Shown piece after piece: positions 55,267 to 61,885 of a DNA stretch of 62,358 nucleotides. Source of the DNA: Candidatus Thorarchaeota archaeon (GTDB lineage: Archaea; Asgardarchaeota; Thorarchaeia; Thorarchaeales; Thorarchaeaceae); contig JASFEF010000003.1 in NCBI GenBank assembly GCA_050124975.1, positions 1-62,358 of the forward strand, in the 5' to 3' direction. The notes under the pieces are model-generated. The model saw only the letters and a program-made list of their open reading frames with translations. It was not told where the DNA came from and did no database searches. The translations under genes were made by a program, and so were the position numbers. Position 1 is the stretch's first letter. Each line of letters opens with the position of its first letter.

Positions 55267-56130
55267 ATGAAATTCGGAAACCTCCCTCCTGAAGTACTAG
55301 AAGCACTGAAGAGATTCTTGGATGAGGATATTAGGTCTGGAGACCTCACAACTCAGTTGACTATCCCAGAGGACACTGATGCATTAGCCACCATCTATGC
55401 GAAGGAAAAATCTGTACTTGCAGGGATTGAGGAAGTCGCAGCAATCGCAGAATTTTCCGGTCTTACCTATGAGGTTCTCGCCTTCGAGGGGAACTGGGTA
55501 GACCCACAACAGCCGGTGATGCGTCTAAAGGGATCTGCCTGGACCTTGTTGACCATAGAACGAGTATGTCTGAATATGGTACAGAGAATGAGTGGGATTG
55601 CTACTAAGGTCTACAACTTGGTCAGTGCTGCAAGAGAAGTGAATCCGAAGGTGAAGATCGCAGCCACGCGGAAGACTACTCCAGGTTTCAGGTTCTTTGA
55701 GAAACGCGCTGTGATGGTTGGTGGCGGTGACCCACACCGTTATGCACTTGATGATATGGTTTTGATAAAGAACAACCATATCACGGCTGCCGGCGGGGTT
55801 CGCGAAGCTGTGACCGCAGCCAGAGAGAAAGTGTCATTCAGTAAGAAAGTATCATGTGAGGCCCGTACTCTTCAGGAAGTCCAAGAGGCTATTGGGGCTG
55901 GAGCGGACATTATTCTGCTAGATAACTTCAAGCCAAAGGATATTGGAGGGCTCATTGAAGTTCTCAAGAAGGAGGGCACACGTGATAAGGTGATACTAGA
56001 GGTTTCTGGAGGGGTCAATGAAGATAATGTCAGGGAATTCGCAAAGACAGAAGTAGATGTGCTATCGTCTGGAGCGTTGACTCACTCATACACGTCCGCG
56101 GATTTCAACATGCTCTTGTCTATGAATTGA
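55267..56130 (+). CDS. nadC: Nicotinate-nucleotide pyrophosphorylase (carboxylating)
   Basis: LDEDIRSGDLTT N-terminal motif, TRKTTPGFR, and the IILLDNF ... EVSGG TIM-barrel motifs. Confidence 0.9.
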   Translation: MKFGNLPPEVLEALKRFLDEDIRSGDLTTQLTIPEDTDALATIYAKEKSVLAGIEEVAAIAEFSGLTYEVLAFEGNWVDPQQPVMRLKGSAWTLLTIERVCLNMVQRMSGIATKVYNLVSAAREVNPKVKIAATRKTTPGFRFFEKRAVMVGGGDPHRYALDDMVLIKNNHITAAGGVREAVTAAREKVSFSKKVSCEARTLQEVQEAIGAGADIILLDNFKPKDIGGLIEVLKKEGTRDKVILEVSGGVNEDNVREFAKTEVDVLSSGALTHSYTSADFNMLLSMN

Positions 56131-56132
56131 CA

Positions 56133-56582
56133 TCATCCAAATGATTGATTGTTGTAGTCGCCATGAAACTCGGTAGGAATCTCACGCAACAGTGTCACTA
56201 GTCTATCTGTGGCTTTTGCAGTCTTTAGTAGCCTTGGCATATTTCCCTTGATGCTAAGCTTTCGTGTGATGAATGCCCGATTTGCACCTATCTTGCCAAG
56301 AAGTATATCTACCCAAACCCTATACGGGGCACTAAGGATGAAAGAAGTTTCTTTCTCCCCGGACCAAATGTCAGTCATCTTGCCAGATTTTATCTCAAAG
56401 CCAACAATCATGGTGTCTTGAACTCCTTTATCAGGCTCAGCCTGTAAGACGAGCGTGTAAGAGTCCTCTACCCCACTAGCTAGTTCAGCATATTCTACAT
56501 CGCTGTTGATTCTCTCCTTGAATTCATTCTTGTATTCGTCAGACCCAAGCTCTAATCTCTTGCTCATTTTGTATTCCTCCAA
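56133..56582 (-). CDS. SCP2 (sterol carrier protein 2)-like domain protein
   Basis: The C-terminal pattern GANRAFITRKLSIKGNMPRLLK is typical of SCP2 domains. It abuts the upstream ADH gene with no gap. Confidence 0.65.
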   Translation of the reverse strand: MEEYKMSKRLELGSDEYKNEFKERINSDVEYAELASGVEDSYTLVLQAEPDKGVQDTMIVGFEIKSGKMTDIWSGEKETSFILSAPYRVWVDILLGKIGANRAFITRKLSIKGNMPRLLKTAKATDRLVTLLREIPTEFHGDYNNQSFG

Positions 56583-57596
56583 CTATATCTTAACCAGCAC
56601 TTTCACATCTTGATTATCTGGACGGGCCAGTGCCTCAAACCCATCAGTGACTACACTACTCAGCGGTATTATTCTAGTTATCATTGGCGTGGGATTGATA
56701 GTACCTTCTGCGAGAAGCCTAATTGCCTCAGGAAACTCTGCATAGCCAAGGTAACTGAACTGAAGACTTAGTTCATTTAACACGCCTCGCATGAAATCAA
56801 CTTCAACTGGTTCCTCGCTAATCCCAAGAACCAAGATAGTTCCACCTCTCTTCACAAGCTGGAAAGACTCAGCACTGGGGCCAGGTGCACCTGTGCATTC
56901 TACAACCACATCGACCCCCACACCTTGAGTCAGACTCTCAATCCTGAGTGGTAATGGCTCCTTTGATGGATTGATAATCTCATCAGCACCTGCTTCTCTA
57001 GCCATCTCAAGGCGAGTGCTCTGTATTTCAGATGCATATACCACTGAAGCGCCTCGTAATTTTGCCATATGTATACTCAAGATTCCAATTGGTCCAGTGC
57101 CTAGGACAAGTACACTGTCACCAGGTTTGAAGTCAATCAAGTTAAACCCACGAACAGCAATTGATAACGGCTCAACAAAAGCACCTGTCTTGTAGTCAAC
57201 TGTATCGGGCAATTGATGAAGCATGGTCTGTGGTACTGCAACGCGCTCAGCCAGCCCACCATCCATTGAGATGCCAATCATCTGCATGTCATCGCAGACT
57301 GAATACTTCTCAGCCTGACAGAAGGCGCATTTGCCACAGGGAAGGAGAGAGTTAGGCACAACTCTGTCACCCTTCTTCCACTTTGTGACTTCTTTACCGA
57401 CTTCAACAACCTCACCAGAAAACTCGTGTCCCAGTATCAACCCAGCTTCATACATCCCGTACTCCCATGCGCTGAGGTCTGACCCACAAATACCAACGAA
57501 CTTCGGTTCGACAAGAACATCTGTAGGACCAAGATTCGGCTCTGGAACATCCCTCACCTGTATCTCGAGAATGCCCTCAAATACAGCAGCTTTCAT
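56583..57596 (-). CDS. Zinc-dependent medium-chain alcohol/polyol dehydrogenase
   Basis: GICGSDL, GHEFSGEVVEVG, structural-zinc Cys cluster CGKCAFCQ...C and Rossmann motif VLGTGPIG. Confidence 0.9.
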   Translation of the reverse strand: MKAAVFEGILEIQVRDVPEPNLGPTDVLVEPKFVGICGSDLSAWEYGMYEAGLILGHEFSGEVVEVGKEVTKWKKGDRVVPNSLLPCGKCAFCQAEKYSVCDDMQMIGISMDGGLAERVAVPQTMLHQLPDTVDYKTGAFVEPLSIAVRGFNLIDFKPGDSVLVLGTGPIGILSIHMAKLRGASVVYASEIQSTRLEMAREAGADEIINPSKEPLPLRIESLTQGVGVDVVVECTGAPGPSAESFQLVKRGGTILVLGISEEPVEVDFMRGVLNELSLQFSYLGYAEFPEAIRLLAEGTINPTPMITRIIPLSSVVTDGFEALARPDNQDVKVLVKI

Positions 57597-59321
57597 CTAT
57601 TCCTCACCTGGAAGCTGGCAACCCTCAAGCCATACTGAGGCGACAGAGTCAAAATCTGGTGGGACTAGGTTAATGTCTGGATCAATGACGATGTCAAGCA
57701 CAGAGGGTAAACCAGAATCCTTGGCCTTTTGAAGTGCAGGGGCGATGTCTTCAGGTTTTTCCACTCTAAGACCAAAACAACCCATAGCTTCAGCAATCTT
57801 GTCATATCTGACATCAACAAAATCTACTCCAACATACCTCTCCTCGTAGAGACCCTTCTGTCCAGCCTTTATCATTCCGTAAGCCCTATCATTTGCAATA
57901 GCTATGATGAATTGGGTGCCCAATCGTTTAGCAGTTTCAAGTTCTTGCGCATTGAACATGAAAGCCCCATCTCCCGATATCACATAGACATCTTTGTCTG
58001 GATGGGCTAGCTTTGACCCAATTGCATACCCTGTTCCAACACCAAGATGACCGGAGTCAGATGGCCAAAGGAACGTTCTCGGTTCATATATTCTGTTCAA
58101 GTAAATCGCCCAGACTGCTATGTTTCCCCCATCCACAATGGAAATTGCATCCCGAGCGTAGAAGTTACGGACCTCTTGAATCATCCTTAGGGGATGAATT
58201 GGGATCTTGTCCGACTTACCTTGCTCGATGAAATCTACGAGCCAGTTATCTTGGGCTTCTCGGCAGTCAGCCATCGACGGACGGGGCTTCGCCTTTGGCT
58301 TGCTCTTGATATGTTTGAGAAGCTCGGATAGAGTGCTTTTAGCATCTCCAACAATTGCCAAGTCCACAACACGGTTGTGTGCAATCATCTCGGGTGCAAT
58401 ATCAATCTGTATCAATCTTTGATCTGCACAGTCCGCCCAGCCTGGTGCTCGTCCCCAGAAATCGAGGTCTCCAAGACGTCCTCCCACGAGTAAGACAAGG
58501 TCTGACTGACATTGTGCACCGATTGCCCCAAAACTAGCAGGTACAAGTGAGAGTGGATGGTCTTCGGGAATCGCACCTCTTGCAGCAACAGATGTTGTGA
58601 CAGGAGCCTGCAGGTGTTCTGCTATAGCAACGAGTTCTTCAGACGCGTTTGACGCGAGAATACCACTACCTGCATGTAAAAGCGGAAACTCTGCTTTCAA
58701 CAACATCTTGGCAGCCTCAGATATGAGAGTAGGGTCTCCCACTGGTGGTTTGGTCATCCTGTACCTATCAGTAGGCACAATTCCATCTTCCAGTGTATCC
58801 TCCTTACATTTCAAGTAAAGGACGTCTGAAGGGATATCCAAGAAGATTGGTCCTGGTCTTCCTGAAGTTGCCTCCCTGAAAGCCCAATGAACAAGATGTG
58901 GAATTCGTTGCCAATGTGAAACAGTTGCACCCCATTTGGTGATAGGCTTAAACAGACTGAGTTGATCTAGCCCTTGTGTGCTTCCATGGTCTGGGTTTAT
59001 CCGCCAGGACTGATTCTGGGCACAGAGTACAATCATTGGAATACTGTCTGCAAAAGCCGGATACACTCCTGGTACCAAATCAGCTGCACCCGGACCTACT
59101 GTTCCTAGGCAAACACCCGGTTCACCTGTGGTTCGAGCCCATGCGTCTGCAGCGTGTGCTGCCGCTTGTTCATGTCGAAAAGTGATAAAATCGATTCCAT
59201 CGGAGGTATAAACAGAGTCAAGTAAGGGATAAAGTTGGTCTCCAGGGACTCCAAAAACATACCTGACTTTTTCTTGTAAGAGGCACTTTGTCAGAACCTC
59301 ACCGCCAGTCATCATAGTCAT
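57597..59321 (-). CDS. Thiamine-diphosphate-dependent enzyme (acetolactate synthase large subunit / sulfoacetaldehyde acetyltransferase-like)
   Basis: N-terminal Pyr domain (YVFGVPGDQL) and the ThDP-binding motif GDGAFMFNAQELETA...IAIANDRAYG. Confidence 0.9.
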   Translation of the reverse strand: MTMMTGGEVLTKCLLQEKVRYVFGVPGDQLYPLLDSVYTSDGIDFITFRHEQAAAHAADAWARTTGEPGVCLGTVGPGAADLVPGVYPAFADSIPMIVLCAQNQSWRINPDHGSTQGLDQLSLFKPITKWGATVSHWQRIPHLVHWAFREATSGRPGPIFLDIPSDVLYLKCKEDTLEDGIVPTDRYRMTKPPVGDPTLISEAAKMLLKAEFPLLHAGSGILASNASEELVAIAEHLQAPVTTSVAARGAIPEDHPLSLVPASFGAIGAQCQSDLVLLVGGRLGDLDFWGRAPGWADCADQRLIQIDIAPEMIAHNRVVDLAIVGDAKSTLSELLKHIKSKPKAKPRPSMADCREAQDNWLVDFIEQGKSDKIPIHPLRMIQEVRNFYARDAISIVDGGNIAVWAIYLNRIYEPRTFLWPSDSGHLGVGTGYAIGSKLAHPDKDVYVISGDGAFMFNAQELETAKRLGTQFIIAIANDRAYGMIKAGQKGLYEERYVGVDFVDVRYDKIAEAMGCFGLRVEKPEDIAPALQKAKDSGLPSVLDIVIDPDINLVPPDFDSVASVWLEGCQLPGEE

Positions 59322-59419
59322 TTGTTTCTCTCCCTCGTTCTAATCCGAGATACCTCATACCCTATGATGCGGTGTGATTTATCAGTTATGACATAATAAG
59401 CGGATAAAACCTGGGTAAG

Positions 59420-59445
59420 TAGTGCTCCGATCGGGATTCGAACTC
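59420..59445 (-). repeat. Degenerate third copy of the tRNA-Glu 3' end
   Basis: TAGTGCTCCGATCGGGATTCGAACTC matches TGGTGCCCCGACCGGGATTCGAACCC (60245-60270) at 22 of 26 positions, in the same orientation. Confidence 0.55.
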
Positions 59446-59477
59446 TAACTCAAAATAATCAGAAAAGCATATCATAA

Positions 59478-59828
59478 ATGTCCCCATATCTTGTTCTTGA
59501 GGAGCCTGTAACAATGCAAGAGAGTCAAGTGATGTTTGGGTTGAGTGGACCAGGTATTCTTGGGATTGGTTATCTTATTGCTATACTGTTGATTGTAATT
59601 GGATACAAAGAGAAAGAGGATATCCACAAGAGAGTTAGATACATCCGTATGGGAGGTGTTCTATTTGGAATAATGATTATTGTAACCGGGCTTACTGTGT
59701 ACGGATACCTAGTAACAGTGATGTTTTTGGTTATGACTCTTCAAGATGTATTCATTCTGGCTTTGGTTTCATCCATTGGTGGCTTGATTATAGGAATCTC
59801 ATGCTATTATCCAATCAGTCAACAATAA
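59478..59828 (+). CDS. Small membrane protein (cassette ORF)
   Basis: 116 aa with three hydrophobic helices. Its stop lies 2 nt before the 31-nt tRNA-derived repeat. Confidence 0.45.
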   Translation: MSPYLVLEEPVTMQESQVMFGLSGPGILGIGYLIAILLIVIGYKEKEDIHKRVRYIRMGGVLFGIMIIVTGLTVYGYLVTVMFLVMTLQDVFILALVSSIGGLIIGISCYYPISQQ

Positions 59829-59830
59829 GA

Positions 59831-59861
59831 TGGTGCCCCGACCGGGATTCGAACCCGGGTC
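59831..59861 (-). repeat. Perfect 31-nt copy of the tRNA-Glu 3' end (att-like)
   Basis: TGGTGCCCCGACCGGGATTCGAACCCGGGTC is identical to 60245-60275. It covers CCA, the discriminator, the 3' acceptor strand, the T arm and 3 nt of the variable region. Confidence 0.9.
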
Positions 59862-60160
59862 TAGATTTTATTGCTTTTATGAAACTGAGACTTCTTCAAT
59901 CGGTTTAGAATGATTACAATCCTTGAACGGATGATGTAGTTTAGTGGGATAGTCAAGACCTTGTATGAACGTATTTGACTCGGTGTTTCAAATACTCTTA
60001 TACTGGCGGCGAGTGCGAATATTATAATCCCACCATATAGTAAGAGACCGAAGAACATTGCTACCCAGACCATACGAAGAGCGATTAATTGTGTATACAG
60101 AATAAATGCTGAAACTACAATAACGAAGATAGCCCCTATTTCATAATCCAGCCGACTCAT
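59861..60160 (-). CDS. Small membrane protein (cassette ORF)
   Basis: 99 aa with two or three hydrophobic helices and a basic tail. Its stop codon abuts the 31-nt repeat. Confidence 0.4.
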   Translation of the reverse strand: MSRLDYEIGAIFVIVVSAFILYTQLIALRMVWVAMFFGLLLYGGIIIFALAASIRVFETPSQIRSYKVLTIPLNYIIRSRIVIILNRLKKSQFHKSNKI

Positions 60161-60244
60161 TTAGTATCTCCAACTAGAGATGAAGTTGCATTAGATGATG
60201 TTTATGTTTTTCCAAAAAGCGTAAACTCTTGAATGAAAATAGAG

Positions 60245-60322
60245 TGGTGCCCCGACCGGGATTCGAACCCGGGTCATAGGGTCGAAAACCCTAGATGCTG
60301 GGCCTGGCTACACTATCGGGGC
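60245..60322 (-). tRNA. tRNA-Glu (anticodon UUC), CCA encoded
   Basis: Manual cloverleaf on the minus strand: acceptor GCCCCGA/TCGGGGC, D arm GTGT..GCAT, anticodon arm TAGGG-TTTTCGA-CCCTA (anticodon TTC), T arm CCGGG-TTCGAAT-CCCGG, discriminator A, CCA. Confidence 0.9.
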
Positions 60323-60943: not shown

Positions 60944-61050
60944 GGGCCCGTAGCTCAGCTTGGTAGAGCAGCAGGCTCATAACCTGTATGTCCGAAGACT
61001 TCCTTCGGCCAGGGGATCGGTCGTGCGTTCAAATCGCGCCGGGCCCACCA
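60944..61050 (+). tRNA. tRNA with anticodon CAU (elongator Met or Ile2), CCA encoded, with a ~30-nt intron-like insert in the variable region
   Basis: Acceptor GGGCCCG/CGGGCCC, D arm GCTC-AGCTTGGTA-GAGC, anticodon arm GCAGG-CTCATAA-CCTGT, T arm GTGCG-TTCAAAT-CGCGC, discriminator A, CCA. There are 35 nt between the anticodon stem and the T stem, where 5 are expected. Confidence 0.85.
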
Positions 61051-61114
61051 TTTTCTAGAATTAGATAGGACCATAAAAGCCTCTCATCCAACGGTATTTT
61101 GAGAGAGTTGGGAG

Positions 61115-61867
61115 GTGGATTCATACTACCAATCATATTTACCATTGAGCCGAGAGAAGCGGATTACAAGTCCTAGAAAGAAGAAAAAGCCAACTGGACT
61201 CCCCAAACATGCAATATGTAGACCTTTGCTTATCGTGCCATTACCCCCTCTCAAAAACCTTAGAGGTGGGCGTAATTCATCCAAACTTGTTTGGTATAGA
61301 TGTGATTTTTGTGGTGCATATTTTCATACAAAAACAAGTAGGATGAAGAAAAGCGAATATGGGTTCTGTAGTAAGAAGTGTCAAGCGAAATTTCATAGTG
61401 AACGACTTAAGGGTCATAGGATATCAAAGAAAACAAGACAGAAAATTTCTGACACTAAACGAGGAATAGAAAGGATAACTGAACCAAAAACTGATGATGG
61501 TTCTACATGGAGAGATTTCTCATCAAATCCAAAGAATCAGTTATGGTATAAAAAAGCGACAGAGTTAGCTACCTCTTATCGTGATACGGGGGAGTGGAAA
61601 CGAAAGTCAAAGGAGATTAAGAAACTAGATAATTACACCTGTCAAGGATGTGGAATTGAGAGGAGAGAAGTAGGTCAAATTGGAGTTCATCATGTGAAGA
61701 AACTTGCAGACTGGATCTATGAAGAAAACAACCCAAGTGAGTATCCAGATGAATTTCTTGTCACTCTATGTCATAGATGTCATACACATACTGAAGCTCA
61801 ACCCGATGAATACAAGTGGCCAATTTCTGCAACAGGAAATGAAACGATAGCGGGGTACCCTAGATAA
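61115..61867 (+). CDS. HNH endonuclease with a NUMOD3-like motif and an FCS-type zinc finger (homing-endonuclease-like)
   Basis: HNH core CQGCG...VHHV...N...LCHRCH. NUMOD3-like LKGHRISKKTRQKISDTKRG. CDFCG...FCSKKC zinc finger. GTG start within GGGAGGTG. Confidence 0.8.
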   Translation: MDSYYQSYLPLSREKRITSPRKKKKPTGLPKHAICRPLLIVPLPPLKNLRGGRNSSKLVWYRCDFCGAYFHTKTSRMKKSEYGFCSKKCQAKFHSERLKGHRISKKTRQKISDTKRGIERITEPKTDDGSTWRDFSSNPKNQLWYKKATELATSYRDTGEWKRKSKEIKKLDNYTCQGCGIERREVGQIGVHHVKKLADWIYEENNPSEYPDEFLVTLCHRCHTHTEAQPDEYKWPISATGNETIAGYPR

Positions 61868-61885
61868 ATCGCGCCGGGCCCACCA
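61866..61885 (+). repeat. 20-nt direct repeat of the tRNA(CAU) 3' end
   Basis: AAATCGCGCCGGGCCCACCA is identical to 61031-61050. It overlaps the stop codon of the HNH gene. Confidence 0.9.

Follow-up and report, generated by a model that had tools for sequence, protein, structure and literature searches.

Integration at the 3′ ends of tRNA genes, orphan tRNA fragments and stacked islands are textbook matters, and the cis-mobilisable elements (CIMEs) of streptococci are integrase-less units that form tandem accretion arrays. In archaea, "gene capture" by SSV/pNOB8-type integration was reportedly described by She et al. in 2001 for Sulfolobales and Thermococcales. Integration at tRNA 3′ ends and its sublocation classes go back to Williams 2002 (via PMC8813620), orphan tRNA fragments and stacked islands have been documented (PMC9897764, PMC3293823, PMC5495485), cas operons and aloposons at tRNA genes are noted for Heimdallarchaeum (PMC8813620), and archaeal metagenome-assembled genomes (MAGs) are reported to contain integrons equipped with IntI and attC (Ghaly et al. 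2022, PMC9668308). Here, we analyzed a window of 62,358 nucleotides that is the entire contig JASFEF010000003.1 of a Thorarchaeota MAG (G000; 3.08 Mb, 88% complete). Next to the 3′ end of its tRNA-Glu(UUC) gene, copies of the tRNA tail delimit two small intervals with one gene each. We consider it probable that these copies mark the junctions of two cassettes of one gene each, which were acquired independently and came to lie one behind the other at the tRNA 3′ end.

The docking gene of the array, tRNA-Glu(UUC), lies at 60245-60322 on the minus strand with its 3′ end toward the cassettes; it has no intron, encodes its CCA and was recognized by ARAGORN and Rfam (RF00005, 58.8 bits). Its final 31 nt (60245-60275, minus strand), which read TGGTGCCCCGACCGGGATTCGAACCCGGGTC on the plus strand, span the variable-loop/T-stem boundary, the T-arm, the acceptor 3′ strand and CCA, and constitute the proximal, attL-like copy. 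The same 31 nt recur with 0 mismatches at 59831-59861 (minus strand; orphan copy 1, the attR-like junction of the proximal cassette) and in decayed form, with 22/26 identity, at 59420-59445 (minus strand; orphan copy 2, the attR-like junction of the distal cassette), where all four differences from the tRNA tail are transitions. The three copies are co-oriented and spaced by 383 bp and 385 bp. Chance is excluded as the source of the 31-mer, since such a repeat is not expected randomly. We use cas2 and cas1 as labels for the proximal and the distal cassette, respectively, and for their open reading frames (ORFs). The original prediction for this locus had been correct to the base in the coordinates, counts, orientation and spacing of the tail copies, as checked with ARAGORN, Rfam and repeat matching. 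It had also rightly placed one small multi-helix membrane ORF in each interval, on opposite strands, and the perfect copy exactly between their stop codons. These are a TAA that ends at 59828 and an opposite TAG that overlaps base 59861. It had further regarded the near-equal cassette size as meaningful; the sizes hold, and their equality appears coincidental because the two proteins are unrelated and other units span 408 bp to 8.5 kb.

An independent assembly from a second metagenome sample (L104) shows the window layout, which is therefore not an assembly artefact. In a third sample, a 26-kb contig has a matching order of called genes, as known from gene order alone.

Relatives were gathered via the neighbouring nadC gene, and each bears the label Thorarchaeota or Promethearchaeota; SMTZ1-45 belongs to the genus. 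The class-wide gene order is nadC, tRNA-Glu, a thioredoxin-like gene and tRNA-Met, and the distance from the tRNA-Glu CCA to the nadC stop codon is usually 15-37 nt in Thorarchaeota. The check for presence/absence polymorphism that was proposed together with the prediction, made here across relatives, bore it out: 34 of the 50 nadC/tRNA-Glu loci in Thorarchaeota are empty, with tRNA-Glu abutting nadC, and the other 16 are occupied by inserts of 0.2-8.5 kb with differing cargo, most of them shorter than 1.4 kb. In the subclade of the window, the pre-insertion downstream flank of the tRNA is the leader of a thiamine pyrophosphate (TPP)-enzyme gene (59322-59419, minus strand). Its sequence GTCATAACTGATAAATCAC, shared with relatives, directly follows the tRNA CCA at the empty site of G014, which has no unit, and follows the orphan copy in G009, where a SnoaL unit and a 24-nt copy separate the tRNA from the leader. 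Outward from the tRNA CCA, the window and L104 (and, by gene order, the 26-kb contig) carry cas2, the 31-nt copy, cas1, the 26-nt copy and then the same leader as flank.

Other species present other arrangements of these and further units. Read in the same direction, L105 and L106 have cas2, a copy, a DM13-domain unit, a decayed copy and cas1; G002 has a 1.16-kb zinc-ribbon/membrane unit, a copy, cas2 and a copy; G011 has cas1, a copy and an Ssb-like OB-fold unit before nadC; and L260-L262 have cas1 and a copy before nadC. In L279, cas1, a copy, a second cas1, a copy, a 157-aa membrane unit, a copy and a cas2-like fragment follow one another, so that two tandem cas1 units are proximal to the cas2-like fragment and the order is reversed relative to the window. 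G018 carries a 1.5-kb leucine-rich-repeat unit and a perfect 42-nt copy before nadC, and the tRNA-Glu inserts of further species encode GNAT, a DUF362 protein, membrane proteins and a 52-aa zinc ribbon.

The homologous units keep their boundaries through these rearrangements. A CCA-to-CCA alignment joins the cas2 units of G000, G002 and L105, which stand at array positions 1, 2 and 1, respectively, and cas1-homologous units were found in G011, L105, L258-L260, L276 and L279, with three different distal neighbours (the TPP gene, the Ssb-like unit and nadC). Single-ORF cassettes thus recur in different arrays and orders. The empty sites, varied occupants and re-ordered homologous units of relatives show that the mobile item that comes and goes is the CCA-to-CCA unit itself. 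The same observations support the mini-cassette array, one of the two readings offered originally, and the locus as a real, mobile array that resembles an integron-like gene-shuffling spot. The other reading, serial decay of integrated elements, found no support: no recombinase family matched in the scanned insert ORFs, and the boundaries of homologous units are the same from one species to the next, a constancy that independent decay would not yield.

Each cassette looks like a self-sufficient expression unit. Cassette cas2 (59862-60244, minus strand, 383 bp), delimited by CCA-to-CCA alignment with the units of G002 and L105, opens after the CCA with a T-rich tract, a promoter-like box GGAAAAACATAAACA (~60199-60213) and a Shine-Dalgarno-like GGAGAT, and this non-coding leader, with its promoter-like box and ribosome-binding site, is conserved across all three units. 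The ORF that follows (59861-60160, minus strand) encodes 99 aa with 2 predicted transmembrane helices and a basic C-terminal tail, and its stop codon overlaps the first base of orphan copy 1. Cassette cas1 (59446-59830, plus strand, 385 bp) has an ORF antisense to the tRNA, with its own TATA-like and GAGGAG signals 5′ of the ATG at 59514; the ORF (59514-59828, plus strand) encodes 104 aa, counted from the ATG used by homologues, with 3 predicted transmembrane helices. The ratio of nonsynonymous to synonymous substitution rates (dN/dS) is 0.20 for cas1 and 0.33-0.62 for cas2, which indicates that both are real genes under purifying selection. No Pfam, PHROG or PADLOC family matched either protein, and no relationship or shared repeat unit was found between the two. 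In 5.8 billion proteins, the cas1 and cas2 families comprise 12 and 5 clusters, all on Thorarchaeota-type contigs, and every homologue with resolvable context lies at a tRNA-Glu array (contig L274 is without a tRNA). The two membrane ORFs are not conserved chromosomal genes, and the proposed mobility survives this check.

Aligned across hosts, the far copies read as hybrids whose left edge is specific to the cassette and whose right part is specific to the host. GAGTTC, a non-tRNA edge, is common to the cas1 orphans of G000 and G011 in place of the GGGTTC of the tRNAs (tRNA strand), and the right part of these orphans is host-specific, both in a T-loop base (G or A) and in the acceptor variant (GGTC or GGCC). 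Likewise, the cas2 orphans of G002 and L105 share ACCTGGG, and both host tRNAs have ACCCGGG. The two copies of a pair can also differ by larger features: the tRNAs of G009 and L105 have a T-loop intron that is absent from their orphans, L258 and the G000 tRNA-Tyr (contig C20) have an intron in the orphan instead of the tRNA, and the copies at tRNA-Ala (contig C29) differ by a compensated T-stem and have the acceptor strand in common. Blocks of shared identity measure 20, 24, 26, 31, 42 and ~68 nt and often start inside or at the T-loop, which is the classic crossover site of tRNA-targeting integrases; the inferred crossover points vary between cas1 units. The hybrid orphans, the intron and T-stem differences and the variable block length argue for reciprocal crossover and against duplication of the target.

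We propose the following putative mechanism. Each cassette would be a small circular module with one gene, its own expression signals, a mimic of the tRNA 3′ part and a T-rich terminator. The circle would enter by a single reciprocal (Campbell-type) crossover inside the T-arm region of the tRNA, swapping the 3′ part of the tRNA gene for the mimic of the cassette, and the displaced old 3′ part would become the downstream orphan copy. The newest cassette would hence adjoin the tRNA, and the sequence after the tRNA CCA would come from the newest unit, which on this model is why every unit starts with a T-rich terminator-like tract. Any two copies could then recombine, so that units would be deleted, excised or re-ordered, and the junction of an excised cassette circle would read TCTAG-tail-CTCTATTTTC. 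We infer that cas2 is the younger and cas1 the older acquisition because cas2 is proximal with a perfect copy, whereas cas1 is distal with four transitions. An origin by reverse transcription or tRNA priming was rejected, since ORFs occur in either orientation and units include their own promoters.

Two further features were observed at the junctions. The CCA of orphan copies is often altered by one transition: it reads CTA at the tRNA-Glu orphans of G000 (59420-59445), L105, L259 and L260, and TCA at the tRNA-Leu orphans of G000 (contigs C21 and C2). Such altered ends may reflect shared descent, a mutational hot spot or the survival of units with a non-recombining site. Introns of tRNA-Glu (L043, L048, L049, L052, L061, L065, L066, L073 and L105) are placed either behind GTTCGAA within the T-loop or where the variable loop meets the T-stem, positions that coincide with places where orphan copies tend to start. 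Eight of 11 intron-bearing tRNA-Glu genes have occupied sites compared with 8 of 39 intron-less ones (Fisher p = 0.002, uncorrected for phylogeny), and the introns seem to be delivered or removed along with the cassette-borne 3′ half.

The array at tRNA-Glu has counterparts in the same genome, at tRNA-Met and at no fewer than 7 other tRNAs. Within the window, an intron-containing tRNA-Met(CAU) (60944-61050, plus strand) is a second docking gene. Behind it lies a single-gene cassette of 835 bp (61051-61885, plus strand) with an HNH-endonuclease ORF of 250 aa (61115-61867, plus strand) and a perfect 20-nt tRNA-Met tail copy at its end (61866-61885, plus strand); the bases after this copy, CTTCTTACTGACG, match the sequence directly after tRNA-Met at the empty sites of G004, G006 and G007. 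Elsewhere in G000, three units follow tRNA-Leu, one each follows tRNA-Asp, -Tyr, -Phe, -Ala and a second tRNA-Leu-like gene, and the tRNA-Lys, -Thr and -Ser loci have the same tail-bounded pattern. When the last 18 nt of 38 G000 tRNAs were searched within 10 kb, 11 same-orientation copies were found downstream (10 orphans and one true tRNA pair) and 1 upstream, and the corresponding numbers in opposite orientation were 0 and 2; the same census gave 0 orphan copies of tRNA 5′ heads. The ten orphan tails are distributed behind 8 tRNAs, and at least a fifth of the G000 tRNA genes carry such cassettes. The cargo includes an acyl-CoA thioesterase, a hemerythrin, a large repeat protein, orphan membrane proteins, an ABC-permease gene fragment and, by motif reading and with no family match, a nuclease-like protein. 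Of 12 cassette ORFs tested, 9 have no second genomic copy and 3 have distant or partial matches only. The permease cassette, behind tRNA-Phe (contig C36, 17233-17580), encodes no more than the first 75 residues of an ABC permease of the oligopeptide type, with 57% identity to the full-length copy that G000 has on contig C163, which shows that gene fragments can also be cargo.

Single ORFs between direct repeats that are not tRNA tails were also observed in G000. Perfect repeats of 21-28 nt flank them at 16151-16830 of contig C40 (L263), 18468-19242 of C12 and 14508-15554 of C9. The repeat in C12 and C40 covers a TATA-like box, and that in C9 resembles the end of a structured RNA, with no Rfam match. 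The C40 insert has empty sites in G021, G015 and G042 and several copies in G005.

The absence of an integrase, already remarked on for the window itself, extends to the whole MAG and four relatives: profile searches with PF00589, PF16795 and PF00239 (tyrosine, SSV-type and serine recombinases) found none in G000, G002, G009, G011 and G018, so the suggested search for a tyrosine or SSV-type integrase with the same att core found none in these five genomes. Among 28 genomes of the genus, PF00589 was detected in 8, PF16795 in 0 and PF00239 in 8. Stated the other way, PF00589 (Xer-like or phage-type) went undetected in 20 of the 28 and was detected in 14 of 14 controls, including four archaea. 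None of the tyrosine recombinases of the genus lies beside a tRNA tail, except for one doubtful case on a 4.5-kb contig. The complete Thorarchaeota chromosome CP070761 has no PF00589 match and retains tail copies of 24 nt, perfectly duplicated at distances of 890 bp and 3.7 kb. No recombinase family matched in the scanned insert ORFs of the 16 occupied tRNA-Glu sites or in the scanned G000 cassette ORFs. The HNH nuclease was rejected as an engine because its homologues occur in only 7 of the 28 genomes. A search for the cassettes in circular or viral contigs, also suggested earlier, came back negative: four tRNA tails and the cas1 and cas2 proteins had no match in 2.9 million viral contigs, and no circular contig was found in the G000 MAG. 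A metagenome scan with a 25-nt tail returned 120 loci with one match each in many sample kinds; this tail is evidently not specific to Thorarchaeota and the scan is uninformative.

What catalyzes the exchange is therefore the point at which explanations diverge. Host homologous recombination might be the whole mechanism, with circles that carry 20-70 nt of a conserved RNA-gene 3′ end integrating and excising without any dedicated enzyme; we regard this as possible yet doubtful. It accords with the lack of a detected site-specific recombinase in the genomes tested, and it is favoured by the wide range of shared identity (20 to ~68 nt), the differing crossover points of cas1 units and the similar single-ORF inserts between non-tRNA repeats, of which that in C40 is empty in three relatives. 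However, a length of 20 nt is very short for homology-based recombination, the asymmetry of 10 orphan tails against 0 orphan heads is strict, many identity blocks begin within the T-loop, and the compact cassettes, whose gene ends abut the copy, resemble those of enzyme-driven systems. The bias toward 3′ ends, the starts in the T-loop and the compact build speak for a dedicated trans-acting enzyme. It is improbable that the units descend by decay from larger viruses or plasmids that carried an integrase gene and once integrated at the tRNA. Such elements classically leave repeats of a tRNA 3′ end as their scar (Williams 2002, via PMC8813620), integration-derived tRNA fragments are documented in Thermococcaceae and Caldiarchaeum (PMC9897764, PMC3293823), and the tRNA-Phe cassette does hold a mere gene fragment; yet no recombinase family matched the scanned ORFs of the occupied tRNA-Glu sites and of the G000 cassettes, most inserts are below 1.4 kb, homologous units keep both boundaries in different species and positions, and the tails, cas1 and cas2 are unmatched in the viral contigs. 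Far less probable still is a long target-site duplication as the source of the copies, created by an enzyme whose cuts in the two strands lie 20-40 nt apart, as with Cas1 on a CRISPR repeat or with a casposase. The polarity is that of CRISPR arrays, in which new units adjoin the "leader", and several recent copies are perfect. Nevertheless, the duplicated length ranges from 20 to ~68 nt at one kind of site, no terminal inverted repeats were found, orphans in different hosts have common cassette-specific left edges, and proximal and distal copies differ by an intron or a compensated T-stem. We rejected duplication because two copies can be heterologous by a whole intron or T-stem. Finally, the original prediction had named a conserved, non-mobile repeat structure in related genomes as the outcome that would speak against it. 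Such a structural or regulatory feature, or an assembly artefact, has practically no chance of being the explanation: nothing beyond the presence of the repeats speaks for it, most relatives are without repeats, the occupants differ between species, and the same layout was assembled in another sample.

Stacked, independently acquired cassettes accordingly remain the preferred reading, and several points weigh against it or against parts of it. Gene conversion between the tRNA and nearby orphans could mimic the host-type right halves of the far copies. The cas1 orphans of G000, L259 and L260 all have CTA instead of CCA, which hints at common descent of unit and copy rather than three independent integrations. 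The comparison of synonymous divergence with the thioredoxin-like neighbour covers only ~100 codons, and the history of this neighbour is itself discordant. We infer a circular intermediate, and no circular form, excision junction or mixed population was observed. Undetected integrases are not proof of absence, since the MAGs are 71-99% complete and mobile elements are often unbinned. Moreover, an SCP2 gene, a Zn-dependent dehydrogenase gene and the TPP-enzyme gene form a 3.2-kb block (56133-59321, minus strand) between nadC and the tRNA, and no tRNA copy remains at its far end. This block is confined to the subclade of G000, G009 and G014, and 2 bp separate it from the stop codon of nadC (quinolinate phosphoribosyltransferase; 55267-56130, plus strand), which throughout Thorarchaeota is ancestrally next to the 3′ end of tRNA-Glu. 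Possibly the block is an earlier and larger insertion into this hot spot that has lost its far copy.

For the stacked cassettes, our tentative choice of catalyst falls on an undescribed trans-acting recombinase, at somewhat less than an even chance. Host homologous recombination on 20-70-nt tails is possible but rates lower, favoured by the variable identity length, the variable crossover points and the single-ORF inserts between non-tRNA repeats, and an integrase on unbinned viruses or plasmids is rather unlikely. We speculate, with considerable doubt, that Thorarchaeota have a dedicated gene-capture system that is integron-like but separately evolved, with a recombinase that is neither a tyrosine nor a serine enzyme of known type and with RNA-gene 3′ ends as platforms. 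In such a system, one-gene cassettes with an RNA-end mimic would dock where stable-RNA genes end, at many tRNAs and perhaps at further small RNA genes, and rewritten tRNA 3′ halves, with introns delivered or removed, would be a by-product.

Two side observations concern tRNA-Glu sites in relatives. In L064 (9868-18365), an 8.5-kb type I cas set with CRISPR-like repeats lies between tRNA-Glu and a tail copy with 1 mismatch. As read from sequence alone, its ORFs resemble cas3, cas5, cas7, cas8 and cas6; no integrase-like ORF was noticed in this reading, and no family search was made. Contigs of many relatives (C63 of G002, C161 of G011, C113 of G018, C74 of G006, C270 of G012 and C108 of G004) tend to end within 1-3 kb of the tRNA-Glu/tRNA-Met region, a pattern to be anticipated if assemblies are broken there by heterogeneous populations or by the repeated tails.

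The locus illustrates a concrete route by which ready-to-express single genes are slotted behind tRNAs, swapped between species and put into new orders, with no classical integrase detected in these genomes, and the missing enzyme is the main point of interest. If a dedicated enzyme exists, it would represent a recombinase family not seen before, whose target is simple and portable; if host recombination is enough, foreign DNA would find a universal landing pad in any conserved end of an RNA gene. An old idea holds that the structure of archaeal tRNA genes is shaped by mobile elements, and the association of introns with occupancy makes it directly testable. In practical terms, orphan tails break assemblies and mislead tRNA finders.

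Full-text searching of the literature found no description of such arrays, and the closest systems each match in part. Like tRNA-targeting elements and CIMEs, the units are inserted at the tRNA 3′ end with the gene regenerated and a co-oriented partial copy at the far end. As expected of an integrative element, terminal direct repeats of the tRNA 3′ end accompany an intact tRNA, and empty attB sites exist (34/50 loci; G014); an integrase inside the unit was not found, each unit being one ORF without a recombinase domain. Serial stacking with the newest unit adjoining the tRNA, a crossover probably in the T-loop and units without an integrase are likewise known from accretion arrays and CIMEs. 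However, those units are kilobase-scale with mobility genes, whereas the units here measure 0.4-2 kb and hold a single ordinary gene. Moreover, none of the 16 occupied tRNA-Glu sites yielded a cognate integrase-bearing element, the five genomes tested gave no integrase, and at least a fifth of the tRNA genes of G000 are affected. As a candidate cis-mobilisable array, the locus offers att-flanked, integrase-less units, and the cognate integrase was not found in G000, the four relatives or the viral contigs. SSV/pNOB8-type gene capture similarly furnishes an archaeal chromosome with foreign genes bordered by tRNA fragments and can rewrite the tRNA, introns included; it involves split or intact integrase genes and multi-gene elements, in contrast to the single genes here, with PF16795 and PF00589 absent. 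The cas operons and aloposons of Heimdallarchaeum likewise use Asgard tRNA genes as landing sites, as does the 8.5-kb cas set of L064, but they are large, and rows of tail-bounded single-gene units are not mentioned in the passages of PMC8813620 on tRNA and integrases. Among casposon- or Cas1-type features, the units have neither a Cas1 gene nor terminal inverted repeats, and Cas1 was not searched genome-wide. A split or permuted tRNA is ruled out, as tRNA-Glu is complete, the extra copies are redundant 3′ parts and there are no orphan 5′ parts.

In behaviour, the array is like integron arrays and clusters of attC sites lacking integron-integrases (CALINs). Both have compact one-gene cassettes in which the gene runs right up to the recombination site, arrays that vary in content and order, a given cassette recurring in different arrays, diverse cargo of mostly unknown function and a presumed excision as circles. 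An IntI-type tyrosine recombinase was not found in the array genomes tested (it is absent by definition in CALINs), and attC-type boundaries were not seen, some tail copies being 20 nt long, without one T-stem strand and unable to form a hairpin; no dedicated attC model was run. The recombination sites are instead copies of the docking gene's own 3′ end, each genome has many platforms (one per RNA gene) rather than one attI, and the cassettes carry their own promoters and stand in either orientation. What sets the present case apart is the unit itself, an ordinary single gene that spans a few hundred bases, brings its own signals and is accompanied by no mobility gene, together with the scale of the phenomenon, the shuffling between species and the lack of detected classical recombinases in the genomes tested. 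Overall, the system is a tRNA-anchored, site-specific accretion with integron-like behaviour.

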